Shown here: positions 47,434-63,792 of the stretch, one piece after another
Position numbering within the stretch: the stretch's first letter is position 1
How the letters are laid out: every line of letters begins with the position of its first letter
Source: Escherichia coli
GTDB lineage: Bacteria > Pseudomonadota > Gammaproteobacteria > Enterobacterales > Enterobacteriaceae
DNA length: 64,000 nucleotides
Reading direction: 5' to 3' (one strand)
NCBI RefSeq assembly: GCF_003019035.1
Contig: NZ_CP027447.1
The notes under the pieces: generated by a model
Seen by the model: the letters and a program-made list of their open reading frames with translations, nothing else
Databases searched by the model: none
What the model was told of the DNA's origin: nothing
Position numbers and translations under genes: made by a program

Positions 47434-48705
47434 ATGGAAGACGACTGCGACATTATTATTATTGGTGCCGGTATAGCAGGCACCGCTTGTGCTTTACGCT
47501 GCGCGCGGGCAGGTTTATCCGTTCTGTTACTGGAACGCGCTGAAATTCCCGGCAGTAAAAACCTTTCCGGCGGGCGTTTATATACCCAGGCGCTCGCGGA
47601 ACTCCTCCCTCAGTTTCACCTGACCGCGCCTCTTGAACGACGCATCACTCACGAAAGTCTTTCTCTGCTAACGCCGGATGGCGCAACGACGTTTTCCAGC
47701 TTACAGCCCGGCGGTGAATCCTGGAGCGTATTACGTGCACGGTTCGATCCGTGGCTGGTTGCCGAAGCCGAAAAAGAAGGTGTCGAATGCATCCCTGGTG
47801 CGACGGTAGATGCGCTGTATGAAGAAAACGGCAGGGTGTGTGGTGTCATTTGTGGTGACGATATTCTCCGCGCCCGTTATGTGGTGCTGGCAGAAGGTGC
47901 CAACAGCGTCCTGGCTGAGCGTCACGGGTTAGTGACTCGTCCTGCTGGCGAAGCGATGGCGTTGGGGATCAAAGAAGTGCTGTCGCTGGAAACATCCGCT
48001 ATTGAAGAACGTTTTCATCTGGAGAATAACGAAGGCGCAGCGTTGCTGTTCAGCGGCGGGATCTGTGATGACTTACCCGGCGGCGCATTTCTTTATACTA
48101 ATCAACAAACGCTCTCGTTAGGGATTGTTTGCCCGCTCTCTTCCCTTACGCAAAGTCGTGTTCCGGCAAGCGAGCTGCTGGCTCGCTTTAAAACGCATCC
48201 GGCAGTGCGCCCGCTTATCAAAAACACGGAATCACTGGAGTATGGTGCGCATCTGGTGCCAGAAGGTGGCTTGCACAGTATGCCGGTGCAATACGCCGGT
48301 AACGGCTGGCTGCTGGTGGGCGATGCGTTGCGCAGTTGCGTCAATACCGGAATTTCCGTGCGCGGCATGGATATGGCGCTGACTGGCGCGCAGGCGGCGG
48401 CACAAACGCTGATAAGCGCCTGCCAGCACCGCGAGCCGCAAAATCTGTTTGCGCTTTATCATCACAACGTAGAGCGCAGCCTGCTATGGGATGTTCTACA
48501 ACGTTATCAGCATGTTCCGGCGCTTTTGCAACGCCCTGGATGGTACCGTGCGTGGCCTGCGTTAATGCAGGATATTTCCCGCGATTTATGGGATCAGGGT
48601 GATAAACCTGTTCCACCGCTGCGCCAGTTATTCTGGCGTCATTTACGTCGTCATGGCCTGTGGCATCTGGCGGGCGATGTTATCAGGAGTCTGCGATGTC
48701 TGTAG
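47434..48705 (+). CDS. ygcN: FixC-like FAD-dependent oxidoreductase (ETF-quinone oxidoreductase family, 423 aa)
   Basis: N-terminal dinucleotide-binding motif DIIIIGAGIAG; start chosen at MEDDCD. Confidence 0.85.
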   Translation: MEDDCDIIIIGAGIAGTACALRCARAGLSVLLLERAEIPGSKNLSGGRLYTQALAELLPQFHLTAPLERRITHESLSLLTPDGATTFSSLQPGGESWSVLRARFDPWLVAEAEKEGVECIPGATVDALYEENGRVCGVICGDDILRARYVVLAEGANSVLAERHGLVTRPAGEAMALGIKEVLSLETSAIEERFHLENNEGAALLFSGGICDDLPGGAFLYTNQQTLSLGIVCPLSSLTQSRVPASELLARFKTHPAVRPLIKNTESLEYGAHLVPEGGLHSMPVQYAGNGWLLVGDALRSCVNTGISVRGMDMALTGAQAAAQTLISACQHREPQNLFALYHHNVERSLLWDVLQRYQHVPALLQRPGWYRAWPALMQDISRDLWDQGDKPVPPLRQLFWRHLRRHGLWHLAGDVIRSLRCL

Positions 48706-48956
48706 CCCGTAATCTCTGGCGCGTTGCCGATGCGCCGCACATTGTTCCGGCTGACTCCGTTGAGCGTCAGACGGTACAACGGTTGATTAACGCCTGTCCG
48801 GCTGGTCTTTTTTCGCTCACACCAGAAGGTGACTTACGTATTGACTATCGCAGTTGCCTGGAGTGTGGCACCTGCCGTTTGCTGTGCGACGAAAAAACAC
48901 TACAACAGTGGCGCTATCCACCTTCCGGATTCGGCATCACCTACCGCTTTGGATAA
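48696..48956 (+). CDS. ygcO: FixX-like ferredoxin (86 aa)
   Basis: Cys cluster CLECGTCRLLCD; overlaps ygcN end. Confidence 0.82.
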   Translation: MSVARNLWRVADAPHIVPADSVERQTVQRLINACPAGLFSLTPEGDLRIDYRSCLECGTCRLLCDEKTLQQWRYPPSGFGITYRFG

Positions 48957-48972
48957 ATAACAAGGATAATTT

Positions 48973-49548
48973 ATGTCCCTCTTACACCTGCTCCGCCAGA
49001 ATCCGGTGATTGCTGCCGTTAAAGATAATGCCAGCCTGCAACTGGCAATCGATTCTGAATGCCAGTTTATTTCCGTGCTATACGGCAATATCTGCACCAT
49101 CAGTCAAATCGTCAAAAAGATTAAAAACGCCGGGAAATATGCCTTTATTCATGTCGATTTGCTGGAAGGCGCGTCAAATAAAGAAGTGGTGATTCAGTTT
49201 TTGAAACTGGTGACTGAGGCGGACGGCATTATCAGTACCAAAGCCTCAATGTTGAAAGCGGCAAGAGCGGAAGGTTTTTTCTGTATTCATCGCCTGTTTA
49301 TTGTTGATTCAATTTCGTTTCACAACATTGATAAGCAAGTTGCGCAATCGAATCCGGATTGTATTGAGATCCTGCCAGGCTGTATGCCCAAAGTGCTGGG
49401 CTGGGTGACGGAGAAAATCCGCCAACCGCTGATTGCTGGCGGGCTGGTGTGCGATGAAGAAGATGCGCGTAATGCGATTAACGCGGGTGTTGTGGCGCTT
49501 TCCACCACGAATACTGGGGTCTGGACGTTAGCGAAAAAATTGCTTTGA
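48973..49548 (+). CDS. ygcP: GlpP-family glycerol-3-phosphate-responsive antiterminator-like regulator (191 aa)
   Basis: 191-aa ORF of GlpP/G3P-antiterminator family length and architecture. Confidence 0.8.
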   Translation: MSLLHLLRQNPVIAAVKDNASLQLAIDSECQFISVLYGNICTISQIVKKIKNAGKYAFIHVDLLEGASNKEVVIQFLKLVTEADGIISTKASMLKAARAEGFFCIHRLFIVDSISFHNIDKQVAQSNPDCIEILPGCMPKVLGWVTEKIRQPLIAGGLVCDEEDARNAINAGVVALSTTNTGVWTLAKKLL

Positions 49549-49583
49549 CGGGATAATCGTAACAAGTTGAATTTGGTGTGATT

Positions 49584-49656
49584 TGTAGGCTGCACGCCAC
49601 ATCCGACATTCAGCGCCTGATGCGACGCTTGACGCGTCTTATCAGGCCTACAAGTC
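49584..49656. repeat. REP/BIME element between convergent ygcP and ygcQ
   Basis: GCCTGATGCGACGCTTGACGCGTCTTATCAGGCCTACAAG plus inverted partial copy upstream. Confidence 0.6.
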
Positions 49657-49695
49657 CCCAGGCCAGAACCGTAGGCAGGATCATCCGGCAACACG

Positions 49696-50556
49696 TTATT
49701 GGCAATCTGCGTGAATGTTTGTCACCAGTGCCTCCAGCACCACTTTCCAGTCATCAACCACGCCAACATCTGCCTGTGAAAATACCGCTGCGCTGGCGTC
49801 ATGATTAATCGCCACCACAAACTTGCTATTGCATACGCCCGCCATTAACGCTGCTGCGCCAGAAGCGCCAACAACAATACACACCTCAGGTGCCAGCAGA
49901 TGTCCGGAAATACCAATCACTTTTTCAGCATCAACGCCACCGTTCATCACTCGCGCCCGACTGTAGCCCACTTCGGCTCCCAGCTTTTCTGCCAGCATAG
50001 CGATTTCCTGGTTATCTGCCTCTCCGCCCTGCCCCACCACCAGCACCCGTCTGGCCTCAGCTAATGGGTCACGGGTAACATTTTTCAGATCCTCTGTGCT
50101 AACCAGCCAGTCGGGAAGCGCGCCGGGGACAATGTTCAGTTGCTGCATACCAGAGGGCAATGTGGCGTTTTTCACTGCTCCCGCCTGGCGGGCAAGGGAA
50201 AGGCATAGCGGGCGTTTTTCTGTTTGCAGCGTCGCCGTTAGCGCATTTCCCCAGTGGGATTTGCGCACGCTTACGGTTGAAATATCTAACGAAGTCACCT
50301 GGCAGATGCTTGCACCATGTAAACGCCAGGCCAGCCGTGTCGACAGTTCATCACCAAACGTTCCCGGCGGAAAGAGAACAACGTCCGCTGGCGTTCGCTG
50401 CCACTGTTCCACCAGCGCATCCAGCACCTGTTCCGCCACTACGGGCTGAGGTTCAATCTGCCAGTGTGCCAGGGTACAACCGCTGAAATCCTGTTCTGCC
50501 AGACAGCTCGCTATTGCGGCATTCTCCTGATTTATTGTCACAATTGCGATATTCAT
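49696..50556 (-). CDS. ygcQ: Electron transfer flavoprotein alpha subunit-like (FixB family, 286 aa)
   Basis: ETF alpha C-terminal FAD-binding region; start at MNIAIVTIN. Confidence 0.85.
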   Translation of the reverse strand: MNIAIVTINQENAAIASCLAEQDFSGCTLAHWQIEPQPVVAEQVLDALVEQWQRTPADVVLFPPGTFGDELSTRLAWRLHGASICQVTSLDISTVSVRKSHWGNALTATLQTEKRPLCLSLARQAGAVKNATLPSGMQQLNIVPGALPDWLVSTEDLKNVTRDPLAEARRVLVVGQGGEADNQEIAMLAEKLGAEVGYSRARVMNGGVDAEKVIGISGHLLAPEVCIVVGASGAAALMAGVCNSKFVVAINHDASAAVFSQADVGVVDDWKVVLEALVTNIHADCQ

Positions 50557-51338
50557 GGCTGCATCCTTTGGCGTAAATAGTCCTGCCATAGCTTTTGCGC
50601 TTTTTCTGCTACCGTTTGCCCATCAATCAGCGTCGCTCCGCGTTGTTGCTCTGCTCTTGCCAGTTGCAGACACAGCATCGCTGGCGATTCGGCAGCAACA
50701 GTTTTACGGATAATTTCTGCTTTCCCCGCCGCCATTCGCTGACGCATTCCCGGTACTGGCAAGGCCACTTCACCACACTGACGCACGGCAATCACCGCAG
50801 GCAAGCGAACCCGGCAACAGCGCAGCCCGTTTTCAGTACGCTGTTCAAGGGTGATAAACGGCGCGTCGAGAGTAAAACGCTCCACCTGGGTGAAGCAGGG
50901 CCAGCCCAGCATTTCCGCCAGCAAAAATGGCGTTTGCCCATTCTGCCCTTCGCTGCTTTGGCAGCCGGTAATGATCAGATCCAGCGGATTCTGACGCTGC
51001 CATTCGGCAATATGGCGAGCGACAAATTCCGGCGCAAAGCGCAGATCTGCCACCGTCTCCAGCAATACAGCGTCCTCAAACCCAAGAGCCATGAGATAGC
51101 GCAGCCAGTGCAACGCCCGTTCATCCCCCATGCTCAACGCGGTTAAAGACATCGGCGTACCGTTTTTTCTCTGCGCTAACAGAAGCGCGGCAGCCGCCTG
51201 TTCATCAGCACCGAGTAAACTTCGCAGCAGCGAAACATCCGGTCCGCAATTACCCTGAGCCGCCACCTGCCACTCTTTTTCTGCCAGCATTCCGGCATCC
51301 GGTTCGGCTTTAAACGCTAACAGAATGTTCATTCGCAC
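50553..51338 (-). CDS. ygcR: Electron transfer flavoprotein beta subunit-like (FixA family)
   Basis: ETF beta-like ORF overlapping ygcQ start; exact start uncertain. Confidence 0.83.
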   Translation of the reverse strand: MRMNILLAFKAEPDAGMLAEKEWQVAAQGNCGPDVSLLRSLLGADEQAAAALLLAQRKNGTPMSLTALSMGDERALHWLRYLMALGFEDAVLLETVADLRFAPEFVARHIAEWQRQNPLDLIITGCQSSEGQNGQTPFLLAEMLGWPCFTQVERFTLDAPFITLEQRTENGLRCCRVRLPAVIAVRQCGEVALPVPGMRQRMAAGKAEIIRKTVAAESPAMLCLQLARAEQQRGATLIDGQTVAEKAQKLWQDYLRQRMQP

Positions 51339-52647
51339 CTCCTACATTTCCCGCCGCCACCAGCGGGAGTGCTTTGGTTTCTGGCGCCCATAACCAGGTA
51401 ACAACAAAACCAACCAACAACACTGCCGCCAGAAGCAATAAAGTGACCGGCATCCCCCACTGCGCCAGCACCCACGGCAGCAGGCCAGTACTTACCGCCG
51501 CCCCCAACCGACTCATGGCGGTGGCAAAACCGACGCCCAGCGAGCGAATGTCAGTAGGAAAACTTTCCGCAGGCAAAATGCCCACCAGATTACTGACTGC
51601 AGAAATGGTGGTGCTGAAGAGAACAAAAAGCAGCAGCGTTAATGAACTGCCGGAAGGCAAACAGGCCATCACTACCAGCGTTGCCGCCAGCAGCAAAAAA
51701 CTTCCCAGCAAAAACTTGCGATGTGCCAGCAGGTGCGTCAGAACTAATCCCAGCAGCGCGCCCACAATTAACAACGCATTAAGCATCAGGCTGGCGGTCA
51801 GCGCATCCTCCAGACCAATAGTCTGGGCGATGGTCGGCAGCCAGGTATAAATCACAAACCATGGGATTACGAGGCAGACAAAGAAGACGCTGTTAAACGC
51901 CGTGCGTCGCCAGTAGCGCGAAGAGAACAAGGTTTTGATGTGTTTATGGGTCGCCGCTGCCACTTCATCGCCCAGTAAAACATGTGGCCCCAAATAGCGA
52001 TGCACAATAGCGTGAGCTTCAGCAAAACGTCCCTGACGCATCAGCCAGCGTGGCGATTCTGGCGTTCCCCAGCGTAATAACGTAATCAACAATGCGGGCA
52101 GAGCTGCCGATGCCAACAGCCAGCGCCAGGCCTCCGGGTTTTCGGAAATAAAGTGATGTCCAGCAATACTTGCCAGCACATAGCCTACGGTCCACACCAC
52201 GCTGAATGCGCCCAGCAAAATACCGCGATGGCGGCGCGGGGAAAATTCAGCCAGCAAGGTGTGACCGACTGAGTAATCGCCTCCCAGACCAATGCCGATC
52301 AAAATGCGCAATCCAATAAGATGCTCTGGCGTGGTGGCAAAAAATTGCAAGAACGAAGCGAGCGTAATCAGCATAAAACTGAAGGTGAAAATTTTTTGCC
52401 GCCCGATATGGTCGGAGATCCACCCCAAAACCAGGCTGCCAAGAAACAAACCAAGTAACGCCGAGCCGCCGATCATTCCCGCCATAAACGGCGTCAGTTG
52501 CATGGCTGGAGTAAGCTGAATAATGGCGTAACCAATGACGCCGAGGACATAACCGTCGGTCAGGTGCGCACCGAAAGTGAGCGCAGCAATTCGACAGTGA
52601 AAACGGTTAAGCGGTAAATCATCCATTCGCACCGGTGAAGTGTTCAT
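51310..52647 (-). CDS. ygcS: MFS transporter (445 aa)
   Basis: 12-TM MFS topology; start at MNTSPVRMDDLPLNRFH. Confidence 0.83.
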   Translation of the reverse strand: MNTSPVRMDDLPLNRFHCRIAALTFGAHLTDGYVLGVIGYAIIQLTPAMQLTPFMAGMIGGSALLGLFLGSLVLGWISDHIGRQKIFTFSFMLITLASFLQFFATTPEHLIGLRILIGIGLGGDYSVGHTLLAEFSPRRHRGILLGAFSVVWTVGYVLASIAGHHFISENPEAWRWLLASAALPALLITLLRWGTPESPRWLMRQGRFAEAHAIVHRYLGPHVLLGDEVAAATHKHIKTLFSSRYWRRTAFNSVFFVCLVIPWFVIYTWLPTIAQTIGLEDALTASLMLNALLIVGALLGLVLTHLLAHRKFLLGSFLLLAATLVVMACLPSGSSLTLLLFVLFSTTISAVSNLVGILPAESFPTDIRSLGVGFATAMSRLGAAVSTGLLPWVLAQWGMPVTLLLLAAVLLVGFVVTWLWAPETKALPLVAAGNVGGANEHSVSV

Positions 52648-52740
52648 CTTTACCCCTTCATTGTCCGGTAATAAGAACGGCTTCTCGCCTGAGAAGCCGA
52701 AAAGGCAACGCCCCGACATCACGGGACGCTGCCTGACACA

Positions 52741-54195
52741 TTATTTTTCAATCGGATAGATAGTACCCGTATTCATAATGCCGTTAGGATCGAACTGCTT
52801 TTTCAGCCCTTCCAGCAACGCCCACGCGCTGCCGTGTTCCAGTTTGCTCCAGTGAACGCGATGTTTACCGATACCGTGGTGGTGCACCATCGAACCGCCG
52901 AGGCGAATGGTTTCTTCGCAGATGATTTTGTTGAGCGGATTGTGGTACTTGTCGATTTCCTCTTCCGGCTTACAGTCAACGACGTTGTAGTCGTAGACGA
53001 AGTACATGTTGGTGCCGTTCTGATAGCTATGAGAGGAGTGACCGCCCAGCATGGTGATGTCGTCGGCGTGCGCGAACTCGGTACGAATACGGTTAATAAC
53101 GCTTTCGTAGATTTCGTGGATGCAGCTCCAGCAGCCGGACACTTCGGTGGTAAAGCCCATGTTGCCGGTTTTGAGGATCTGCACACGTTCAGCGGCCACT
53201 TTATCCGGCCCCCAGTTCAGGTGATTAAACCAGGTTTCGATCAGCTTGCTGTCCACGCGCTGGCATTGCGGGTAACGTGCCACGATTTCAGCAATCCCTT
53301 CGCCCGTCGCCTTCGCAATGCGAGGGTTACCTTCAGCCATAAAGATCAGCACACATTTACCATCGGCAAAATGGGTGAAGTGTTGGGTGCCATCTTCAGC
53401 GTCATACAAACGAGCGATCGACGGACGATACCCTTCCACCATGATTTCACGCAGGATGTTGAAGCCGGTTTTCATGTCTTCCAGGATATAGCCGTAGAAG
53501 AGGTTGTTTTCCGGGGTGAACTTAAAGATTTTCACTGTTACTTCAGTGATATAGCACAATGCACCTTCGTTGCCGATGATAATGTGACGAATGTCCGGGC
53601 CTGCCGCGCGGCGTGGTACGTTTTTAATACGTGTGACGGTGCCATCAGCCAATACTGCTTCCAGACCAACGACCATATCTTCGATTGCGCCGTAGAGTGT
53701 GGAGAACTGCCCGATACTGCGGGTTGCTACCAGGCCGCCCATCTGCGCCAGCGGTTTTGATTGCGGTGAATGCCCCGTGGTGTAACCTTTTTCACGCAAC
53801 GTGTTTTCCAGCACCTCCAGCGGAACACCACATTGCGCCGTGGCCTGCATATTCTCAATATCAATATTAATGATTTGATTCATGGCAGAGCCGTCGAGCA
53901 CCACCGAGTTTTCCACAACGGTTTCCAGCCCACCTTCGGTAGCGGAAGCACCGGTACGCGGCACACCGTTAATTTTGTGCGCATTCATAAAATTCAGCAC
54001 ACGGGATACTTGTTCTGTGGAACCGAGTTTTACGACCGATGCCGGAATCGGCAAAGTATAAATGCCATGAATATCCGGAAATTTGCGAAAACGGTCAATA
54101 CTGTTTTTCTTTAATACTGTTTCATCGGTAATTACGCGATCTGCACCAACAATTTCCTTTAGCTGGTCGACAATCGCTGCGCGGGATAAAGACAT
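52741..54195 (-). CDS. ygcU: FAD-linked oxidase (PCMH/GlcD-like, alkyl-DHAP synthase family, 484 aa)
   Basis: FAD-binding PCMH-type domain sequence, 484 aa. Confidence 0.88.
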   Translation of the reverse strand: MSLSRAAIVDQLKEIVGADRVITDETVLKKNSIDRFRKFPDIHGIYTLPIPASVVKLGSTEQVSRVLNFMNAHKINGVPRTGASATEGGLETVVENSVVLDGSAMNQIINIDIENMQATAQCGVPLEVLENTLREKGYTTGHSPQSKPLAQMGGLVATRSIGQFSTLYGAIEDMVVGLEAVLADGTVTRIKNVPRRAAGPDIRHIIIGNEGALCYITEVTVKIFKFTPENNLFYGYILEDMKTGFNILREIMVEGYRPSIARLYDAEDGTQHFTHFADGKCVLIFMAEGNPRIAKATGEGIAEIVARYPQCQRVDSKLIETWFNHLNWGPDKVAAERVQILKTGNMGFTTEVSGCWSCIHEIYESVINRIRTEFAHADDITMLGGHSSHSYQNGTNMYFVYDYNVVDCKPEEEIDKYHNPLNKIICEETIRLGGSMVHHHGIGKHRVHWSKLEHGSAWALLEGLKKQFDPNGIMNTGTIYPIEK

Positions 54196-54264
54196 AGTAA
54201 TTCCTTCCTGATAATAAAAATGGAATAGTCATTAATAAGAGAAAACAGAAACCACCGTTATGGA

Positions 54265-55050
54265 TTAGCGCACTAAATAACCGCCATCGACCACTAATAA
54301 ATGCCCGTTAACATAATTTGAAGCCGGACTTGCGAGGAATACGGCTGCGCCCATTAAATCCTGAGTATCACCCCAACGGTTTGCCGGTATATGATCAAGA
54401 ACGCGCTGATTGGTTTCTGGATTACTGCGTGTTGCCAGCGTAATATCGGTTGCATAATATCCCGGGGCAATACCATTCACCTGAATATTATATTGACCTA
54501 ATTCATCGCAATAGGCTTTGGTGAATCCAGCAAGAGCATGTTTAGTGGCAGAATAAGCAGGTGACCATTGTCCACCTAAGTAAGAGAACAATGAACAGAT
54601 ATTAATGATTTTACCGCTTTTCTGCGGGATCATAATTTTTGCTGCTTCGTAGCTTAACTCGAATGCGGCGGTCAGGTTCACATCAATCATCGGGTCCCAG
54701 TCGGCACGACCGAAGTCCAGCACCTTATTCAGCTTACAAATACCGGCATTGTTAACCAGAATATCTACGGTACCGAAGCGCTCACAGCAGGCAGCGATAA
54801 TCTTCTGCGGCGCGCCTTCTGCGGTGATATCCACCTGCATAAAATCAACTTCGACACCCTGTTTTTCAATCATTTCCTTTGTTTCGCCGTTATCTTTGAC
54901 GAAGCTAGGGATAAAGACATTTGCGCCAGCTTTGGCCAACGCCATGGCAAATGCCTGGCCTAAACCGCTATTCCCGCCGGTAACAATTGCTGTTTTACCT
55001 TTCAGGGAGAAAAAATCCATTGAGAACGCATTGAGAGATTCGATTGACAT
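54265..55050 (-). CDS. ygcW: Short-chain dehydrogenase/reductase (KduD/gluconate 5-dehydrogenase-like, 261 aa)
   Basis: TGGNSGLG cofactor motif and YxxxK catalytic motif. Confidence 0.9.
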   Translation of the reverse strand: MSIESLNAFSMDFFSLKGKTAIVTGGNSGLGQAFAMALAKAGANVFIPSFVKDNGETKEMIEKQGVEVDFMQVDITAEGAPQKIIAACCERFGTVDILVNNAGICKLNKVLDFGRADWDPMIDVNLTAAFELSYEAAKIMIPQKSGKIINICSLFSYLGGQWSPAYSATKHALAGFTKAYCDELGQYNIQVNGIAPGYYATDITLATRSNPETNQRVLDHIPANRWGDTQDLMGAAVFLASPASNYVNGHLLVVDGGYLVR

Positions 55051-55074
55051 AGTTAGCTCCAATTTCCGTAAGGC

Positions 55075-55120
55075 AAAAAAAAGAAAGGTAACTTCCCCCG
55101 CGAGAGGGAAGTTACCTTTC
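55075..55120 (-). terminator. Strong intrinsic terminator-like hairpin (15-bp perfect stem GAAAGGTAACTTCCC / GGGAAGTTACCTTTC, 8-nt loop) followed by U8 on minus strand, located in the 5' leader ~25 nt upstream of ygcW start; candidate attenuator
   Basis: Inverted repeat 55083-55097 / 55106-55120 and A8 run 55075-55082 on plus strand read directly. Confidence 0.6.
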
Positions 55121-55366
55121 TCATTATCTCTGGTAACTGGATATAATTTTTAGCATAAGGGCATAAGCGCTAATGTGATCGTAATCACAGTGTGATATTC
55201 GTATTATCAAATAATTTTAAAAAGCAGAAGCGTGACTACTCTCACACAACACCACTGCTTTCCATGTTATTTCTTATTGCAATTACTAGAGACCTGAGAA
55301 AAGTAATCCACCTGAAAGGGCGGCTTACTTTTCTCTTTTTTTGTCTATTACAAATGGGAATACGAT

Positions 55367-56644
55367 ATGCAACACAACTCATATCGCCGTTGGATAACCC
55401 TCGCGATAATTAGTTTTAGCGGCGGCGTTAGTTTCGACCTGGCTTATTTACGTTATATTTATCAAATTCCCATGGCGAAATTTATGGGATTCAGCAATAC
55501 CGAGATAGGTTTAATAATGAGTACCTTTGGTATTGCAGCTATTATTCTTTATGCGCCCAGTGGCGTTATTGCCGATAAATTCTCACATCGCAAAATGATT
55601 ACTTCCGCGATGATCATTACCGGATTACTGGGTCTGTTAATGGCAACTTATCCACCGCTGTGGGTAATGCTCTGTATTCAGGTTGCCTTTGCGATAACGA
55701 CGATTTTAATGCTGTGGTCGGTGTCGATTAAAGCCGCATCGTTGCTGGGCGATCATAGCGAGCAAGGGAAAATTATGGGCTGGATGGAAGGGCTGCGCGG
55801 CGTCGGTGTAATGTCGCTGGCGGTGTTTACCATGTGGGTCTTTTCTCGCTTTGCACCGGATGACAGCGCCAGCCTGAAAACGGTCATTATCATCTACAGT
55901 GTGGTCTACATTTTATTGGGGATTCTGTGCTGGTTTTTTGTTAGCGATAACAACAACCTGCGCAATACCAATAACAAAGAAAAACAGTCATTCCAGCTTA
56001 GCGACATCCTGGCCGTTTTGCGCATCAGCACCACCTGGTATTGCAGCATGGTGATTTTTGGTGTCTTCACCATCTACGCCATTCTGAGTTACTCCACCAA
56101 CTATCTCACCGAAATGTACGGCATGTCGCTGGTGGCGGCGAGCTACATGGGGATTGTGATCAACAAAATATTCCGCGCGCTGTGTGGTCCACTTGGCGGC
56201 ATTATCACCACCTACAGTAAAGTGAAATCCCCTACCCGCGTGATCCAAATCCTTTCCGTACTCGGCTTGCTGGCGTTAACTGCCCTGCTCGTCACGAACT
56301 CTAACCCGCAATCGGTCGCGATGGGGATTGGCCTGATTTTACTGCTGGGATTCACCTGTTACGCCTCACGCGGGCTGTACTGGGCCTGCCCTGGCGAAGC
56401 GAGAACACCGTCTTACATTATGGGCACCACGGTAGGTATTTGTTCGGTGATTGGATTCCTGCCGGATGTCTTCGTTTACCCGATTATCGGCTACTGGCAA
56501 GACACCCTGCCCGCTGCAGAAGCCTACCGCAATATGTGGCTGATGGGCATGGCGGCGCTTGCCATGGTGATCGTCTTTACCTTTTTGCTGTTCCAAAAAA
56601 TTCGTACTGCTGATAGCGCCCCTGCTATGGCTAGCAGCAAGTAA
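55367..56644 (+). CDS. yqcE: MFS transporter (425 aa)
   Basis: Hydrophobic 12-TM ORF. Confidence 0.85.
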   Translation: MQHNSYRRWITLAIISFSGGVSFDLAYLRYIYQIPMAKFMGFSNTEIGLIMSTFGIAAIILYAPSGVIADKFSHRKMITSAMIITGLLGLLMATYPPLWVMLCIQVAFAITTILMLWSVSIKAASLLGDHSEQGKIMGWMEGLRGVGVMSLAVFTMWVFSRFAPDDSASLKTVIIIYSVVYILLGILCWFFVSDNNNLRNTNNKEKQSFQLSDILAVLRISTTWYCSMVIFGVFTIYAILSYSTNYLTEMYGMSLVAASYMGIVINKIFRALCGPLGGIITTYSKVKSPTRVIQILSVLGLLALTALLVTNSNPQSVAMGIGLILLLGFTCYASRGLYWACPGEARTPSYIMGTTVGICSVIGFLPDVFVYPIIGYWQDTLPAAEAYRNMWLMGMAALAMVIVFTFLLFQKIRTADSAPAMASSK

Positions 56645-56670
56645 GTCCAGAAAATTACAGGAGAAAAATC

Positions 56671-58149
56671 ATGTCGAAAAAATACATCATAGGGATTGAT
56701 GGCGGAAGTCAGAGCACAAAAGTGGTGATGTATGATCTGGAAGGTAATGTGGTTTGCGAAGGCAAAGGCTTATTGCAGCCGATGCACACGCCAGATGCCG
56801 ATACCGCAGAACATCCTGACGACGATTTATGGGCATCATTATGTTTTGCCGGTCACGATTTGATGAGTCAGTTTGCCGGAAATAAAGAAGATATTGTCGG
56901 CATTGGTCTGGGATCCATCCGTTGCTGCCGTGCGTTATTGAAAGCCGATGGCACACCAGCTGCGCCGTTGATTAGCTGGCAGGATGCACGCGTTACACGC
57001 CCTTACGAACATACGAATCCTGACGTGGCATATGTCACCTCTTTTTCGGGTTATCTGACGCATCGCTTAACCGGCGAGTTTAAAGACAATATCGCCAACT
57101 ATTTTGGTCAGTGGCCGGTGGATTATAAGACCTGGGCATGGAGCGAAGATACCGCGGTAATGGAGAAGTTTAATATTCCCCGACAGATGCTTTTTGATGT
57201 GCAAATGCCGGGCACTGTTCTTGGGCATATCACTCGTCAAGCCGCGCTGGCGACACATTTCCCGGCTGGGCTGCCGGTTGTTTGTACCACCAGTGATAAA
57301 CCGGTAGAAGCTCTGGGAGCCGGATTACTGGATGATGAAACGGCGGTGATTTCTCTTGGCACCTACATCGCGCTGATGATGAACGGTAAAGCACTGCCGA
57401 AAGATCCGGTAGCGTACTGGCCGATTATGTCTTCTATTCCGCAAACCTTGCTGTATGAAGGTTACGGTATCCGCAAAGGCATGTGGACGGTGAGCTGGCT
57501 ACGCGACATGCTAGGCGAGTCGTTAATTCAGGATGCCAAAGCACAGGATCTTTCACCGGAAGATTTGCTCAACAAAAAAGCGTCTTGTGTGCCGCCTGGC
57601 TGTAATGGTCTGATGACGGTGCTGGACTGGCTGACCAATCCGTGGGAACCATACAAACGCGGGATTATGATCGGCTTTGATTCCAGCATGGATTACGCAT
57701 GGATATATCGTTCGATACTGGAAAGCGTGGCGCTGACGCTGAAGAACAATTACGACAATATGTGTAATGAAATGAATCACTTTGCAAAGCATGTGATCAT
57801 TACTGGCGGCGGTTCGAACAGCGATCTGTTTATGCAGATTTTTGCCGACGTGTTCAACCTTCCGGCACGCCGTAACGCCATTAATGGTTGTGCAAGTCTG
57901 GGGGCAGCGATCAATACGGCGGTAGGTCTGGGGCTATACCCGGATTACGCAACGGCTGTCGACAAAATGGTTCGCGTGAAAGATATCTTTATGCCTGTTG
58001 AGAGCAACGCCAAACGCTACGACGCGATGAATAAAGGCATTTTCAAAGACCTAACCAAACACACTGATGTGATCCTGAAAAAATCGTATGAAGTGATGCA
58101 TGGTGAGCTGGGGAATGAAGATTCGATCCAGAGCTGGTCGAATGCGTAA
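56671..58149 (+). CDS. ygcE: FGGY-family carbohydrate kinase (492 aa)
   Basis: FGGY kinase N-terminal motif IGIDGGSQSTK, 492 aa. Confidence 0.9.
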   Translation: MSKKYIIGIDGGSQSTKVVMYDLEGNVVCEGKGLLQPMHTPDADTAEHPDDDLWASLCFAGHDLMSQFAGNKEDIVGIGLGSIRCCRALLKADGTPAAPLISWQDARVTRPYEHTNPDVAYVTSFSGYLTHRLTGEFKDNIANYFGQWPVDYKTWAWSEDTAVMEKFNIPRQMLFDVQMPGTVLGHITRQAALATHFPAGLPVVCTTSDKPVEALGAGLLDDETAVISLGTYIALMMNGKALPKDPVAYWPIMSSIPQTLLYEGYGIRKGMWTVSWLRDMLGESLIQDAKAQDLSPEDLLNKKASCVPPGCNGLMTVLDWLTNPWEPYKRGIMIGFDSSMDYAWIYRSILESVALTLKNNYDNMCNEMNHFAKHVIITGGGSNSDLFMQIFADVFNLPARRNAINGCASLGAAINTAVGLGLYPDYATAVDKMVRVKDIFMPVESNAKRYDAMNKGIFKDLTKHTDVILKKSYEVMHGELGNEDSIQSWSNA

Positions 58150-58196
58150 GTGAGGAAGACCGGGCGGGAAACTGCCCGGCCTGAACATACCTGAAT

Positions 58197-58334
58197 GGTT
58201 ATCCCCGCTGACGCGGGGAACATAAGTTCGACAACTTAAAAAATGATAACAAGTCCGGTTTATCCCCGCTGATGCAGGGAACATAATAAAAACTTTAACT
58301 AGTTCGGTTTATCCCTGTTTTTACAAGGAATATT
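58197..58334 (-). CRISPR. Degenerate CRISPR remnant: three decayed repeats (…GGGGAACAT, …GCAGGGAACAT, …CAAGGAATAT) with one 32-bp and one 20-bp spacer
   Basis: Repeat-like units at 58197-58224, 58257-58285, 58306-58334 with accumulating mismatches. Confidence 0.7.
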
Positions 58335-58786
58335 AACTACACTCGATGTCTTTAGAATAAAAGACAATACGAATCGCACTTTATCAATTTTCACTTAAAG
58401 TATGAACTGGATATCTTTATTCATAAGAACTATTCATCAACAGCCTATAGAGGCGGTTATGTAAAACCACTCATTAGCCTCAAAACAAAGACAAATTTCC
58501 AGATTTATTACTTAATCAATGAATAACAAGCTTAAAAAATACACTGTTATTCTAAAGAAAAAATTAACAGGCATTAATTAATATTAAAAAAATAATAGAT
58601 TAAAATTTCTTAACGGTTTAAGGATTATACAAATAACACTTTGATTAAATTTGATTTTTTGTATCGATAATTGTGAACTTATCTGGCATGGAGAACTATT
58701 TTGAACATGAGGTGTTATGTGGATATGTTGCTTATTACAAGTACAGCTAATATAAAAACTTGAGAAAGAGATAACGGGTTATATGG

Positions 58787-59059
58787 TGGTTTATCCCCGC
58801 TGGTGCGGGGAACTCTTGGCATAGGCGCTATAGCGGCGCTCTGTGTCCGGTTTATCCCCGCTGGCACGGGGAACTCGTTGGTGCCGTTGTTGTAACCGTA
58901 GAAACCGACGGTTTATCCCCGCTGACGTGGGGAACTCGCAGGTCAACACGGGCGATAAACCCGGCTGACCGGTTTATCCCCGCTGACGTGGGGAACTCGA
59001 TAAGCAGATTGCAGAACTACAGGCGAAGGACGGTTTATCCCCGCTGACGTGGGGAACTC
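58787..59059 (-). CRISPR. CRISPR array 2 (type I-E repeats, 5 repeats / 4 spacers of 32 bp); repeat variants ending AACTC; leader at high-coordinate end
   Basis: Repeats at 58787, 58848, 58909, 58970, 59031; R1 TGG…GCTGGTGCGGGG, R2 …GCTGGCACGGGG, R3-R5 …GCTGACGTGGGG. Confidence 0.93.
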
Positions 59060-59250
59060 TCTAAACATAACCTATTATTAATTAATGATTTTTTAAGCCA
59101 GTCACAATCTACCAACTTTACAGGATCACACAAACAACACATCCATTATGTTAAAGAACACTTAATCCATTGATTAAAAAAGTAAATATTTAAAATAACT
59201 CTATACCCACTAAAATCTACCAAACTTTACCGCAATAATTTTCACTCCAA
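59060..59250 (-). other. Putative leader of CRISPR array 2 (AT-rich, shares CAATCTACCAACT motif with array 1 leader)
   Basis: Motif at the same distance (~60 nt) from the last repeat in both arrays. Confidence 0.5.
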
Positions 59251-59397
59251 CGAAAAATTAACGCCACAGAATTTGTAGAGAATGATAATGATTAGCCCAG
59301 AATGGGCAAAATGGAGTTTTTTCAGAGGCGACAAAGAATATAAATAAGTGGAAGTCTTTACAGGTTCCACCCATTTATAACGCTTATAAATGTTTAA

Positions 59398-60069
59398 TCA
59401 GGCAATATTCAAATATTTATGTGTCTGCATCGACAAACGCCAGTTGCGCGCTATGCAGGTATCGATACATAAACGCGTAGCATCTTCCTTCTGGCTAATT
59501 GGCTGAAGTGCAATGACTCGCGGTTTATCATCGGTCAGCGTCGCAAGCAATTCATCCAGTGCTTCGATATCACGTACGCGTCCCACTGGATGCTTGATTT
59601 CGTTGGCTCGCTCCAGTGCCTGTGACAACACTTCATAGCCGCCGCGCATATTCAGCTTTGGCGATACGGTAACCCAGGTATTCGGTGTGCAGCGTACTTC
59701 ATGAGTACCACTGGTTTCGATCTGGCAGCTAAAACCGTTCTTTTCGAGCTGGTCAGTCAGTGGCAGCAAATCATGAATGCAAGGCTCACCACCCGTAATC
59801 ACCACATGCCGTGCGGTGTATCCCTGGCGACCAATGACAGCCAGCAAATCTTCACTGCTCGCAGCCCCCCACTTATCACTCTCTTTGGTCTTCGCCAGAA
59901 TGCTGAAAAGGGAAACTTCCCGATCCTCAAGCTTTTCCCAGGTGTGTTTGGTGTCGCACCAGGCACAGCCAACCGGGCATCCCTGTAAACGAATAAAAAT
60001 GGCGGGGACGCCGGTAAAGTAACCCTCACCTTGCAGGGTCTGGAACATCTCGTTAATCGGGTACTGCAT
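59398..60069 (-). CDS. queE: 7-carboxy-7-deazaguanine synthase QueE (radical SAM, 223 aa)
   Basis: Starts MQYPINEMFQTLQGEG, radical SAM Cys motif CPVGCAWCDT. Confidence 0.95.
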   Translation of the reverse strand: MQYPINEMFQTLQGEGYFTGVPAIFIRLQGCPVGCAWCDTKHTWEKLEDREVSLFSILAKTKESDKWGAASSEDLLAVIGRQGYTARHVVITGGEPCIHDLLPLTDQLEKNGFSCQIETSGTHEVRCTPNTWVTVSPKLNMRGGYEVLSQALERANEIKHPVGRVRDIEALDELLATLTDDKPRVIALQPISQKEDATRLCIDTCIARNWRLSMQTHKYLNIA

Positions 60070-60241: not shown

Positions 60242-60844
60242 ATGCTCAGGATATTCATCGTAATTATATTTATTGTCAATTTATCAGGCTGTGGATATAA
60301 CGATATTCAAACCTATGATGAGCAGGTTAACGCCTCCTGGTCTGAGGTATTGAATCAATATCAACGTCGCGCCGATCTTATTCCTAATCTTGTCGCCAGT
60401 ATTAAAGGTTATTCCAGCCATGAACAAGAGGTACTGGAAGCCGTAACATTGGCACGTAGCCAGGCTAATCGCGCCAGTAGCGATCTTCAGCAAGCTCCGG
60501 GAGATGCGCAAAAATTACAAGCCTGGCAACAAGCCCAGGCGCAGGTGTCTCGCACTCTCGGTCAGTTAACGATAATTAGTGAACGTTACCCTGAGTTAAA
60601 AGCTCAGGAACTCTATCAAAACTTAATGGTACAGCTCGAAGGAAGTGAAAATAGAATTGCCGTTGCGCGAGGAAGATATATTAAAGCCATTGAACAATAT
60701 AATGTCACTATCCGCAAATTCCCCGCTGTATTAACCGCAAAGGTCATGGATTACACACCAAAGAAAAATTATTTGCCGGATGATGTCACCGCAGTAAGTA
60801 AAGCCCCAACAATAGATTTTAGCCAGAATGCTAATGCGCATTAA
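60242..60844 (+). CDS. LemA-family lipoprotein (200 aa)
   Basis: Lipobox LSGC, LemA-like helical region; RBS present; AT-rich. Confidence 0.85.
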   Translation: MLRIFIVIIFIVNLSGCGYNDIQTYDEQVNASWSEVLNQYQRRADLIPNLVASIKGYSSHEQEVLEAVTLARSQANRASSDLQQAPGDAQKLQAWQQAQAQVSRTLGQLTIISERYPELKAQELYQNLMVQLEGSENRIAVARGRYIKAIEQYNVTIRKFPAVLTAKVMDYTPKKNYLPDDVTAVSKAPTIDFSQNANAH

Positions 60845-60857
60845 GCGGGGAAGTTCT

Positions 60858-61751
60858 ATGCGAAATTTTATCTTCCTTATGGCTTTCTTCTGTTCATCTG
60901 TGTTTGCCACACAAATTCCAGTACCTGAATCCCCCAAGTATGTGAATGACTTAACCGGCACATTAACAAACAGCGAAGTAAACACCCTGACCAACCAGAT
61001 TAAAGCCCTGACGCAAAAAAACCACGCACAGTTGGTCGTGTTAGTGGTTGATACAACAGGCGATGAAACCATCGAGCAGTACGCAACGCGGGTATTCGAT
61101 AGCTGGAAACCGGGTGATAAAGACCGCGATGATGGCGTTCTACTGTTAGTCGCCTGGCAGGATCATACCGTGCGTATTGAAATCGGTTACGGACTGGAAG
61201 GTATTATTACGGATGCACAGTCCGGGAAAATTATTCGCAACAGTATTATTCCGGCATTTAAAAAAGGCGACCTGGCTGGTGGTTTACAAAAGGGGATCAA
61301 CGATATTGAAAGTCGCCTGACGGGGAATAATTCAGCAACGATAACACCGACCGATCACCCTTTGCCCTTTAGCGGTTGGTGGGCTTTGTTAGTCTGGGCG
61401 ATAATACTGACGTTTATTTCTGCCAGAGGATATATCAAAACGCTGGGACTGATTTGCTTCGCAGCTATTGTACTGGCCTTTGTTTTACCTATAGCAGGTT
61501 TCAGCGGAAGCTGGGGAGTGCTCGCAACATTACTCTGCTTCGCCACACCGTTCCTGGCTGTCGCCATCGCTTTTACTCCCTTCGGCAAAAAGGTTCGGGA
61601 TTCGATGCGTAATACCAACCAGCCATCACGCCATACAAGAAGTAATTCTTCCTCCCACTATTCGTCATCGTCATCCTCTTCATTCGACAATGACAATTTC
61701 CGCGGTGGTGGCGGTTCATCTGGTGGCGGTGGCGCTTCCGGACGCTGGTAA
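60858..61751 (+). CDS. TPM-domain (YgcG-like) membrane protein paralog 1 with Gly-rich C-terminal tail ...[16 protein letters not shown]
   Basis: Signal peptide, TPM domain, TM segment, Gly-rich tail; start at MRNFIFL. Confidence 0.8.
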   Translation: MRNFIFLMAFFCSSVFATQIPVPESPKYVNDLTGTLTNSEVNTLTNQIKALTQKNHAQLVVLVVDTTGDETIEQYATRVFDSWKPGDKDRDDGVLLLVAWQDHTVRIEIGYGLEGIITDAQSGKIIRNSIIPAFKKGDLAGGLQKGINDIESRLTGNNSATITPTDHPLPFSGWWALLVWAIILTFISARGYIKTLGLICFAAIVLAFVLPIAGFSGSWGVLATLLCFATPFLAVAIAFTPFGKKVRDSMRNTNQPSRHTRSNSSSHYSSSSSSSFDNDNFRGGGGSSGGGGASGRW

Positions 61752-61765
61752 CAAAAGGAATTGAT

Positions 61766-62914
61766 ATGCGTATTTTTCTCTTACTTCTGATGCTATGCGG
61801 TTTTCAGGTATTCGCTGAACAATTGCCTTCAGTAACTGACTTAACCGGGACATTAACGACAGAAGAACAAACTGCTTTAAATCAACAATTACAGACTCTC
61901 GAGCAGCAAAACCACTTCCAGGTGGCCGTGTTGGTTACGCCGACTACAGGGGGCAAAAACATTAAACTTGCAGCCTCGCAGAGATACGGGTTATATCACT
62001 GGAAACCCGTTGGAGAGAAGCGATATGGCGAAGGTATCTTAATTCTCGTCGTATGGCCGGAAGGGCTGGCGTCAATGAAGATTGGACATGGACTGGAACA
62101 GATGTTGCCGCCAGAACAAGCTGCGCAAATTGTTCGTTACCATATGCAGCCAGAATTCGAAAAAAGCAATCTCTTTGCTGGATTAACGGGCGGAATTGAA
62201 AGCATCGCACAGTTTACCCATATCAAAGCGAACCTTAGCCCTTTGGATGCTTTAGCCAATCATCTGTTTGCTAATCCACAACGTTCGCTGCCATGTCTTG
62301 CCTGGACACTGCTGATGATCGTTGCCATCGTTGTCCTCTGGCGATTTACCAGCCGTCCTGGGCCTGGCATATGGATGATATCGATGATTACCCCTATGGT
62401 CTGGTTTTTCTTCTTTCAGGATGATGTCATCATTCGGCGGGTGTCGATCGTTTGTTTTAGTTTATTGTTAGCAACAACCTGCTGGCAGCGTCTCGCGGTA
62501 GTTTTTAATATGTGCCGCGCATTTCCTATGATGCTGGCCCCCAAAAATAAAAACACTAAAGTGAAAAAACAAAAGAAGACCCAGCAATTTCCTGAATCAG
62601 GACGAAATTCATTGTTTGTCGTGATGCTGATAATTGTTGTGGGATGGTGCCTGGTGTTCGCCAGTAATAAAGATATTGCATTCATCTCAACAATTATTGG
62701 GTTAATTGATCATTTTATCGGCCCAATAACCATTGCTGGCATCGTTCTGCTGATCATTGTGGCCAAATTTACTGGCAATCTTAAACTGGGGTCAGGAGAA
62801 AAAAGCAACAGGAAAACGGGGAATCGTAATGCTCATTCTCGCTCTTCGTCGAAAAATTCTTTCCGCGGTGGCGGCGGTTCTTCAGGAGGCGGCGGTTCAT
62901 CCGACCGTTGGTGA
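61766..62914 (+). CDS. TPM-domain membrane protein paralog 2 with extended multi-TM C-terminal region and Gly-rich tail ...[15 protein letters not shown]
   Basis: ATG with AAGGAA RBS; TPM N-terminal domain similar to neighbours. Confidence 0.8.
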
Positions 62915-62919
62915 TCGTT

Positions 62920-63792
62920 ATGCGTATAATCCTTTTTCTACTCACTTTATGGTGCCTTCCTGTGCTTGCCCAGCAAATTGCTGTGCCGGAGCTGCGCCAA
63001 CAGGTGACCGATATTACTGGTACCTTAAGCACGTCTGAACAACAATCACTAACACAACAGCTGCAGGATATTACACAAAAAACACGGGCACAGGTCGCTG
63101 TATTAATAGTGCCATCCACCGGAGACGATTCTATTGAACAATATGCTACAAGAGTTTTTGACAATTGGCGTTTAGGAGATGCCAAACGTAATGATGGGAT
63201 ACTGATCATTGTTGCCTGGTCGGATCGTACTGTCCGCATCCAGGTAGGTTATGGGCTGGAAGAAAAGGTAACCGATGCTCTGGCTGGCAATATCATCCGT
63301 AGCATCATGATACCCGCCTTTAAAAAACAAAAATTAGCTAAGGGATTAGAATTAGCTATAATCGCTTTGAATAACCAACTCACTTCACAACACCAATATT
63401 CGTCTAATCCTTCAGAAAGTGAATCAGCGTCTTCCAGTGATCATTACTACTTTGCTATTTTTTGGGTATTTGCAGTGATGTTCTTCCCTTTCTGGTTTTT
63501 TCATCAAGGCAATAATTTTTGTCGGGCATTTAAAAGCAGTGTTTGTATTTCAACAGTCTATCTTATAGATTTATTCCTGTTCTCCGATCAAACTTTTTCC
63601 ATTGCTGTATTTTCCTTCTTTTTTACTTTCACCACCATTATGGTCTTTACCTGTTTATGTGTACTTCAGAAAAAAGCATCTGGTAGAAGTTATCATTCAG
63701 ACAACAGCGGTTCCGGTGGCGGCTCAAGTGGCGGCGGATTTAGCGGCGGGGGCGGTTCTTCTGGCGGTGGCGGCGCGTCCGGTCGCTGGTAA
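62920..63792 (+). CDS. ygcG: TPM-domain membrane protein (290 aa), likely the YgcG ortholog adjacent to eno
   Basis: 290 aa from ATG 62920, TPM domain, tail [15 protein letters not shown]; position immediately upstream of eno. Confidence 0.75.

Follow-up and report, generated by a model that had tools for sequence, protein, structure and literature searches.

What is the function of the ten adjacent genes ygcN to ygcE of Escherichia coli, and how is their expression controlled? These genes occupy positions 47434-58149 of the window analysed here (the whole 64-kb stretch of DNA), and although over 90% of E. coli genomes carry them, they are still without a function in the best-studied bacterium. 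The present analysis points, with a probability of roughly 60%, to a catabolic regulon for a small hydroxylated, glycerol-like compound, which is controlled by the cyclic AMP receptor protein (CRP) and the GlpP-family protein YgcP, and in which the compound would pass through a kinase, a short-chain dehydrogenase/reductase (SDR) and the flavoenzyme YgcU. The best-supported part, considered highly probable, is the mode of regulation, where CRP-activated promoters would be followed by leaders terminating transcription by default, and YgcP would stabilise alternative antiterminator hairpins, by analogy with GlpP. While the uncharacterised gene set was already known, the new findings are two leader elements, so far unannotated, that belong to a family spanning several phyla and are linked to YgcP, the grouping of YgcU with alkyl-dihydroxyacetone-phosphate (alkyl-DHAP) synthase (AGPS), and the quaternary-amine context.

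The regulatory evidence is located in the 316 bp intergenic region (55051-55366) between the divergent genes ygcW and yqcE, with the following features.

55075-55141, minus strand: ygcW leader RNA element (terminator scan, fold, covariance model, covariation)
55174-55189, unstranded: CRP site TGTGATCGTAATCACA (sequence; chromatin immunoprecipitation sequencing, ChIP-seq, peak of enterotoxigenic E. coli over the same site)
55278-55342, plus strand: yqcE leader RNA element (fold, covariance model, pattern search)

The CRP site is a perfect palindrome. For enterotoxigenic E. coli, a ChIP-seq peak of CRP that contains the site TGTGATTACGATCACA has been reported at ygcW/yqcE (PMC4287617), and yqcE-ygcE is listed among the Crp-activated genes (PMC8085971), which together support the catabolic character proposed for the cluster in an earlier note on this DNA. 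Extended -10-like motifs are conserved just upstream of both elements (TGCTAAAAAT for ygcW and CATGTTATTTC for yqcE), and the transcription starts are therefore placed, provisionally, at the first bases of the leader elements. Judged from the -10-like motif, the CRP site would lie at about -41 to -43 with respect to the ygcW promoter. Next to the perfect site, at 55192-55207 and about 81 bp upstream of the presumed yqcE start, there is another, weak CRP-like half-palindrome, TGTGATATTCGTATTA; the yqcE promoter, with which the main CRP site is not in phase, may make use of this half-site.

The terminator scan located the ygcW leader terminator at 55122->55081 (minus strand) as a 19-bp stem followed by U8, about 30 nt before the start codon, and within the 12.6 kb scanned no terminator-like site is stronger. 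The arms of the yqcE leader terminator lie at 55296-55306 and 55325-55335, followed by U7, about 25 nt before the start codon. Both leaders are about 65 nt long, and the distances from terminator to start codon are overall 15-30 nt. Since ygcW and yqcE are divergent, the terminators lie in 5' leaders; that they are the ends of upstream genes is ruled out, as the flanking genes both point away from the region. The ygcW leader folds with -40 kcal/mol (z -5.5 against shuffles), and the yqcE leader displays a z of -3.6 against shuffles.

Each leader can also form a second hairpin. In the ygcW leader GUUACC (55137-55132) pairs with GGUAAC (55116-55111) around the loop AGAGAUAAUGAGAAA, and in the yqcE leader AUUACU (55282-55287) pairs with AGUAAU (55302-55307) around AGAGACCUGAGAAA. 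As the 3' half of this antiterminator stem is the 5' arm of the terminator, the two folds are mutually exclusive. The antiterminator hairpins alone are weak (-6.7 and -1.4 kcal/mol), as compared to about -30 to -40 kcal/mol for the whole, terminator-dominated leaders; this weakness fits the need for a protein. The consensus stem halves are RTTACY and RGTRAY around an AGAGA...GAGAAA loop, and the pattern TTACY-AGAGA-N2-5-GAGAAA-RGTAAY has exactly two matches in the window and none in 100 shuffles. Covariance models of Rfam gave no match at E<=1 in 55051-55366, and RefSeq carries no annotation at the leader elements in any of the 5047 genomes carrying the region.

The distribution of the element was followed in 80 loci around YgcU relatives, taken from one genome per species, plus three loci from an exact-protein look-up. 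As a regular expression, the motif is found upstream of ygcW and yqcE throughout Enterobacterales, and also in Photobacterium, Clostridia and Syntrophomonadaceae. A covariance model (R1) seeded on 44 copies recovered 114 copies at E<3e-4 in 84 sources. In the window it finds two sites only, the ygcW element with 80 bits (E 1.8e-12) and the yqcE element with 73 bits (E 4e-11), and it extends to taxa outside the seed, i.e. Erwinia/Pantoea, Halobacillus, Thalassobacillus, Virgibacillus, Geosporobacter, Dethiosulfatibacter, Sporomusa and Saccharopolyspora; in the Saccharopolyspora copy (61% GC) the stem reads GGUCGC/GCGACC. In an alignment consisting mostly of related Enterobacterales, the antiterminator stem is 90.2% paired, with changes on both sides in 5 of 6 pairs, as compared to 17-60% pairing for slid controls; the alignment used was fitted by the model to the terminator and not to the antiterminator stem. 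The terminator is 90.6% paired, with changes on both sides in 9 of 17 pairs. The genes downstream of the copies are ygcW (59), yqcE (45), betaine/choline/carnitine transporter (BCCT) genes (6), ygcU (5), ygcE (2), an ATP-binding cassette (ABC) permease, and one gene each from two unlabelled families.

When metagenome contigs were scanned independently, with nothing but the RNA pattern as query, 177 matches turned up in 103 contigs, and 166 of these matches are followed within 700 nt by a yqcE, ygcW or betaine-ABC homologue. Of the remaining matches, six fall at the ends of contigs, three precede MttB-family genes and two are chance-like; the latter (L093 and L162) were rejected, having neither a U-run nor a nearby cluster gene, and a handful of such matches is the rough expectation. 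Viral contigs yielded no match to the pattern, and the element is thus not phage-borne.

The occurrence of the element follows that of YgcP. All 56 loci with a YgcP homologue carry the element and none has YgcP without it, while 19 loci have neither, and in 9 the element is present but the stretch examined shows no YgcP. The element-bearing YgcP loci span Proteobacteria, Bacillota and one actinomycete, and the cluster-linked YgcP homologues of other phyla are about 59-60% identical to YgcP. YgcP itself matches the Pfam family PF04309 (G3P_antiterm) with E 1.6e-62 over all of model positions 1-173 of 173, and its closest solved structure is 3kts, a glycerol-operon antiterminator of Listeria (E 7e-28, 101 bits). 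The family assignment of this regulator in the earlier note therefore stands, while its proposed targets, the two leader terminator/antiterminator elements, had been missed.

In Bacillus subtilis, GlpP with glycerol-3-phosphate disrupts the leader terminators of glpD, glpFK and glpTQ (PMC9604022). The glpD 5' untranslated region printed in the supplement of that paper was used for comparison; it has a GGUC/GACC stem with the loop UGAGAUGAGGAGA, and GAGACC... opens the 5' arm of the terminator. Both systems thus have a PF04309 regulator, leader terminators, and a short stem with a purine loop carrying two GAGA repeats, the 3' half of the hairpin being the 5' arm of the terminator; a shared overlapping hairpin and the co-occurrence of regulator and targets were likewise found in the ygc system. 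In both, the kinase making the inducer would be part of the regulon, a role that is proposed here for YgcE. The ygc leaders differ in sequence, with AGAGA-N3-5-GAGAAA and RTTACY/RGTRAY in place of UGAGAUGAGGAGA and GGUC/GACC, and the pathway is probably a non-glycerol one in which no glpF, glpK or glpD is involved. Unlike the GlpP regulation known from Bacillus, the YgcP-type system occurs in Proteobacteria and an actinomycete as well as in Bacillota.

These observations suggest the following course of regulation. CRP would activate the divergent ygcWUSRQ and yqcE-ygcE promoters, and each leader of about 65 nt would by default fold into a strong intrinsic terminator. YgcP would bind the purine-rich AGAGA..GAGAAA loop of the weak alternative hairpin and so permit read-through, probably only when loaded with the phosphorylated product of YgcE, by analogy to GlpP and glycerol-3-phosphate.

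The genes placed under this control, and those facing them, are as follows.

47434-48705, plus strand: ygcN, FixC-like FAD-dependent oxidoreductase, candidate electron-transfer flavoprotein (ETF):quinone oxidoreductase (Prokaryotic Genome Annotation Pipeline, PGAP; NCBIfam)
48696-48956, plus strand: ygcO, FixX-like ferredoxin (PGAP, NCBIfam)
48973-49548, plus strand: ygcP, GlpP-family (PF04309) putative RNA-binding antiterminator (Pfam, PDB 3kts match)
49565-49648, plus strand: repetitive extragenic palindromic (REP)-like element between the convergent ygcP and ygcQ (Rfam naRNA4)
49696-50556, minus strand: ygcQ, divergent ETF alpha subunit (PGAP, NCBIfam)
50553-51332, minus strand: ygcR, divergent ETF beta subunit (PGAP, NCBIfam)
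51310-52719, minus strand: ygcS, major facilitator superfamily (MFS) transporter (NCBIfam)
52741-54195, minus strand: ygcU, FAD_binding_4 flavoenzyme of an alkyl-DHAP-synthase-like subgroup (PDB 4bby match)
54265-55050, minus strand: ygcW, KduD/gluconate-5-dehydrogenase-like SDR (NCBIfam PRK06935, PDB 4z9y)
55367-56644, plus strand: yqcE, MFS transporter (PGAP, NCBIfam)
56671-58149, plus strand: ygcE, FGGY-family kinase (PGAP, NCBIfam, PDB matches)

The open reading frame list of the window gives ten uninterrupted frames of the expected sizes and strands. Among complete E. coli genomes the segment is 100% identical to strain SCU-301 (NZ_CP051751), whose PGAP record has ygcN, ygcO and ygcP on the plus strand, ygcQ, ygcR, ygcS, ygcU and ygcW on the minus strand and yqcE and ygcE on the plus strand, with no pseudogene flag on any of the ten. 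The extent and gene content given in the earlier note are thus exact. Its two convergent units become three, as ygcNOP is convergent with ygcWUSRQ, and ygcWUSRQ is divergent from yqcE-ygcE. Its FixC-, FixX-, ETF-, FAD-oxidase-, MFS-, SDR-, FGGY- and GlpP-like labels hold at the family level for all ten products (NCBIfam and Pfam). No protein of the ten reaches an NCBIfam curated name-giving cut-off, and hence none receives a specific name.

The order of reactions can be outlined from family membership and gene order. The compound would be imported by YqcE and/or YgcS, YgcE would phosphorylate a primary hydroxyl, and YgcW, an NAD-linked SDR, would oxidise the neighbouring secondary alcohol; YgcU would then act on the resulting DHAP-like keto-phosphate. 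In E. coli the electrons would pass from the flavin of YgcU to the ETF YgcQR, further to the FixCX-like YgcNO and finally to the quinone pool. The closest solved relatives of YgcE are the autoinducer-2 kinase LsrK and then glycerol kinases; its FGGY membership is clear, while the best named models, XylB (142 bits, cut-off 380) and LsrK (142 bits, cut-off 528), stay below their equivalog cut-offs. YgcW scores 350 bits with PRK06935 (cut-off 369) and matches PDB 4z9y with E 2.5e-58, its nearest relatives being KduD and gluconate-5-dehydrogenases. YgcS matches sugar-porter, aromatic-acid and organic-cation MFS subfamilies; it has also been described as a NiaP homologue with 26.5% identity, the overexpression of which raises nicotinamide mononucleotide production from nicotinamide (PMC8601175).

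GlpK/GlpD and the EryA/EryB enzymes of Brucella act in a comparable order, where the kinase comes first and a flavoprotein coupled to the respiratory chain then oxidises the phosphate ester. The ygc system would share this phosphorylate-then-oxidise logic, and differs in its flavoenzyme, which is of the VAO/AGPS and not of the GlpD/DAO type, in its additional SDR and in the absence of isomerases and aldolases.

YgcU, a protein with FAD_binding_4 and FAD-oxidase_C domains, is conserved to an unusual degree, the E. coli protein sharing 65-73% identity with those of Sporomusa, Bacilli, Desulfobacterales and an actinomycete. Among solved structures, AGPS (EC 2.5.1.26; PDB 4bby, E 3e-40) comes closest to it. 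Residues R419, Y578 and H615-617 of AGPS align with R262, Y398 and H438-440 of YgcU, which are invariant in the 13 sequences of the family alignment A1, and the HHHG motif is present in 82 of the 84 YgcU orthologues. The aligned His, Tyr and Arg residues are reportedly catalytic in AGPS; PDB 4bca has Phe at the position of the AGPS Tyr. YgcU and AGPS (4bby, 2uuu) thus have the FAD_binding_4 fold, the HHHG loop and the Tyr and Arg in common. YgcU is shorter, with 484 residues as compared to 584 (2uuu) and 658 (4bby), and the alignment starts at AGPS residue 139 (2uuu) or 216 (4bby), leaving the N-terminal region of AGPS (the first ~140-215 residues) without a counterpart. In AGPS this region helps to form the lipid-binding site or tunnel. 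YgcU further differs from AGPS in being encoded in a CRP-controlled catabolic operon, often with ETF genes next to it, and with no lipid-metabolism genes nearby.

The earlier note had taken YgcU for a GlcD-type oxidase. In this version, now a rather doubtful one, YgcU would be a GlcD/LctD-type dehydrogenase passing electrons through YgcQR and YgcNO to quinone, like lactate dehydrogenase-EtfAB, and the kinase and SDR would act upstream in a plain sugar-alcohol or sugar-acid pathway. YgcU does match the glcD hidden Markov model TIGR00387, with 144 bits against a cut-off of 568, as well as LctD (7qh2_C, E 8e-22), the distant homologue of YgcU in Ldh-EtfAB of Acetobacterium woodii; ETF genes lie directly after ygcU in 64 of the 84 loci compared, FixCX-like genes occur in Enterobacterales, and YgcW is nearest to sugar-acid dehydrogenases. 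Against it, AGPS outscores every solved 2-hydroxyacid dehydrogenase as a match to YgcU (E 1e-25 for glycolate oxidase), and YgcU lacks the E-H-G motif, having HHHG in place of the AEHG of 3pm9, the sole GlcD-type homologue with its alignment printed. The loci without ETF, and the transporters and methyltransferases of the regulon elsewhere, which are for quaternary amines and not for sugars (see below), are also at odds with it.

The ETF module itself is only partly comparable to known ones. Like fixABCX (cai-linked) and ydiQRST of E. coli and Ldh-EtfAB of A. woodii, the ygc cluster combines an ETF with a substrate-specific flavoenzyme, and it encodes FixC/FixX-like proteins. Unlike in the Fix systems, the four Fix-like genes do not form a single operon: ygcRQ belongs to ygcWUSRQ (minus strand) and ygcNO is transcribed with ygcP (plus strand). 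All four proteins are well under the curated Fix cut-offs. YgcN reaches 380 bits with NCBIfam PRK10015 and 363 with FixC PRK10157 (cut-off 610), YgcO 80 bits with FixX (cut-off 166), YgcQ 63-76 bits with the ETF alpha models (cut-offs 240-549) and YgcR 34-43 bits with ETF beta (219-445).

The genome-neighbourhood comparison that the earlier note had proposed was carried out on 84 loci, and its result is a core of SDR, kinase and YgcU. Counts of the individual genes are 84 for ygcU, 78 for ygcW, 72 for ygcE, 64 for ygcQ, 62 for ygcR, 57 for ygcP, 49 for yqcE, 43 for ygcS and 37 for ygcN. Twenty loci contain SDR, kinase and YgcU without any ETF (Halobacillus, Virgibacillus, Thalassobacillus, Alkalihalobacillus, SAR324 and the Erwinia/Pantoea type), so that ETF is outside the conserved core and dispensable in many orthologous clusters. 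ETF is combined with FixC in 36 loci, all from Enterobacterales, and with a second FAD_binding_4 oxidase after the ETF genes in 18 loci from anaerobes and Photobacterium. These two arrangements never occur together, and in the anaerobes the second oxidase stands in place of FixCX. The second-oxidase loci include L002, L004, L051-L055, L063-L065, L069, L077 and L084; two ETF pairs are present in Photobacterium, Geosporobacter and a few others.

A second enterobacterial form, without ETF and FixCX, was observed in Erwinia, Pantoea, Serratia proteamaculans and relatives (L034, L035, L039, L044, L046, L048 and L049). Both leader elements are retained in this form, and the genes found in place of ETF and FixCX code for a succinate-semialdehyde dehydrogenase (SSADH)-like aldehyde dehydrogenase, an aldo-keto reductase, a Fae-like protein, i.e. 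one of the formaldehyde-activating-enzyme family, and a LysR regulator resembling GcvA.

Loci from outside Enterobacterales have transporters of the BCCT family or ABC transporters of the OsmF/ProW type (OpuA-type), several of which are under a leader element of their own. Neighbouring genes elsewhere encode MttB-family methyltransferases, a MtgC-like corrinoid protein and a methyltetrahydrofolate methyltransferase, and also an SSADH-like aldehyde dehydrogenase, an aldo-keto reductase or Zn-dependent alcohol dehydrogenase, an aspartase-like lyase and a Fae-like protein. The transporters and methyltransferases of the relatives point to a quaternary-amine-linked hydroxylated compound rather than to a plain polyol or sugar acid. 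The proposal of the earlier note is supported in part, with its gene content confirmed and a catabolic character likely, and a plain polyol or sugar acid disfavoured by the BCCT/OpuA-type transporters and the co-regulated MttB family. In three loci of uncultured Bacillota the leader element lies directly upstream of a gene for a non-Pyl (non-pyrrolysine) MttB-family methyltransferase (L129:6235-7824, L155:392-2017 and L072:12425-14031), and the YgcP-type regulon there thus includes quaternary-amine demethylation. In L072 a PanB-like gene, a betaine-type ABC transporter and a proline-racemase-like gene come next.

The AGPS likeness and the quaternary-amine context can be combined into a reading with a different role for YgcU and a named substrate, which differs from the proposed kinase-SDR-YgcU route in these two respects only and which is considered improbable. 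YgcU would act as an AGPS-type enzyme in reverse, i.e. by a redox-neutral, flavin-mediated exchange (as a hydrolase) at the C1 position of a 1-substituted DHAP. As substrate one would expect a glycerol with an ether- or N-linked quaternary amine, for example the head group that deacylation leaves of a betaine lipid, such as glyceryl-trimethylhomoserine; in this scheme YgcE would introduce the 3-phosphate, YgcW would form the 2-ketone, YgcU would release DHAP and a betaine alcohol, and the ETF would merely re-oxidise flavin left reduced. AGPS being the nearest solved relative, with R419, Y578 and H615-617 kept in YgcU, is in favour of this mechanism, as are the glycerol-kinase-/LsrK-like kinase, a regulator family that senses glycerol-3-phosphate in B. 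subtilis, and the occurrence of the core without ETF in aerobes. The BCCT and OpuA-type transporters under the same leader element, and the MttB-family methyltransferases with corrinoid proteins that are co-regulated or adjacent, are consistent with such a substrate. The SSADH-like dehydrogenase, the alcohol dehydrogenase or aldo-keto reductase and the aspartase-like lyase would fit the onward breakdown of a hydroxy-betaine, and many of the hosts are marine or halophilic. Betaine lipids are abundant in algae and in the ocean. On the other side, this reading is wholly inferential: neither such a pathway nor any combination of an FGGY kinase with BCCT, or of betaine-lipid catabolism with BCCT, is described in the literature searched, which covers few subscription journals. 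E. coli and its relatives have MFS carriers and a dedicated ETF with FixCX and rarely meet betaine lipids, and the N-terminal region of AGPS that belongs to the lipid site has no counterpart in YgcU. If true, which we regard as a long shot, the YgcU orthologues would be a new class of bacterial flavoenzymes able to break an ether (or C-N) bond, otherwise inert, at the C1 position of DHAP derivatives, the core together with its control by YgcP would be the missing catabolic route for glycerol-linked quaternary amines, and E. coli would hold an ETF-coupled, MFS-fed variant of it.

That glycerol-3-phosphate itself is the ligand of YgcP, and the cluster a second glycerol pathway, is unlikely. E. 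coli has its own glpFK, glpD and glpABC elsewhere, YgcE scores 103 bits against a GlpK cut-off of 590, and the co-regulated transporters of other bacteria are of the betaine type. Very improbable is a function of the leaders as ligand-binding riboswitches or plain attenuators independent of YgcP, since the structured and conserved 5' leaders with their mutually exclusive folds, which would suit it, have a conserved hairpin whose purine loop is open and whose ~30 nt fall short of the size of a typical aptamer, have no evident leader peptide, and show the complete co-occurrence with ygcP homologues, the layout of the GlpP-dependent glpD leader and no match in Rfam.

Several points weigh against the CRP- and YgcP-controlled kinase-SDR-YgcU regulon preferred here. 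The covariation stands for fewer independent events than the counts of changed pairs suggest, as the aligned leaders are mostly from related Enterobacterales and much of it lies between the two leader paralogues. No leader element was found upstream of ygcNOP, the unit encoding YgcP itself. The link between ETF and YgcU is not universal, FixCX is limited to one order, and electrons could flow in the opposite direction. The substrate of E. coli may differ from that of the relatives, given its MFS carriers as compared to their BCCT/OpuA-type carriers. The AlphaFold2 model of YgcU built from A1 (mean predicted local distance difference test score 63.8, predicted template modelling score 0.50) is too poor for use, so the comparison with AGPS is made on sequence only. 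Finally, no growth phenotype or inducer of the cluster is reported in the literature searched.

That literature contains only incidental mentions of the ten genes. A search across all ten gene names found no assignment of a substrate or pathway to any of them, in agreement with the earlier note, which had named an assigned pathway or frameshifted pseudogenes as findings that would overturn its proposal; neither was found, in the literature searched and in the PGAP record, respectively. In enterohaemorrhagic E. coli D-serine induces ygcU 1.69-fold, and the deletion of ygcU is without phenotype (PMC13012123).

The proposed control also offers a way to the substrate. A fusion of a leader to a reporter should respond only to the true inducer, with YgcP and YgcE present, and could thus be used for screening compound libraries. 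The elements define an RNA family absent from Rfam, and through them GlpP-type antitermination, known from the glycerol regulon in Bacillus, would also be present in Proteobacteria and serve another pathway. With its betaine-type transporters, MttB-family methyltransferases and AGPS-like flavoenzyme, the cross-phylum regulon may represent an as yet undescribed pathway for a hydroxylated quaternary amine, which would be relevant to methylamine and osmolyte turnover in the gut and in the sea.

At least 80% of the cluster is covered in 5060 of 5426 complete E. coli genomes, and about 5400 genomes other than SCU-301 match at 95-99%. SCU-301 being the single genome with a 100% match, the window comes either from an uncommon lineage or has a divergent segment at 47434-58149. 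In SCU-301 the cluster is flanked by queD and cysJIH on the upstream side and by a CRISPR (clustered regularly interspaced short palindromic repeats) array, queE and eno on the downstream side, and the position between queD and CRISPR was given correctly in the earlier note. The REP flanks mentioned there were not recovered, as the 78 nt gap between queD and ygcN has no REP element and the sole REP-like element is internal, in the ygcP-ygcQ gap (49565-49648), with a weak match to Rfam naRNA4 (39 bits, under the gathering score).

A GC-rich hairpin, CCGGGC-gggaaact-GCCCGG, lies at 58160-58179 directly after the ygcE stop codon; it has no U-run and was not listed by the terminator scan. Just past ygcE, at 58197-58335, three degenerate CRISPR-type repeats (GGTTTATCCCCGCTG..GGGAACA-like) were read by eye, while Tandem Repeats Finder gave nothing in 58100-59450. 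They lie about 450 bp upstream of the annotated array (58787-59059), with an AT-rich stretch in between, and look like a decayed remnant of a CRISPR array. Further downstream, between queE and eno (60242-63792), a LemA-family gene is followed by three TPM-domain genes; homologues of this block are present in only 3-4 other fetched loci, and the block is therefore variable among Enterobacteriaceae.

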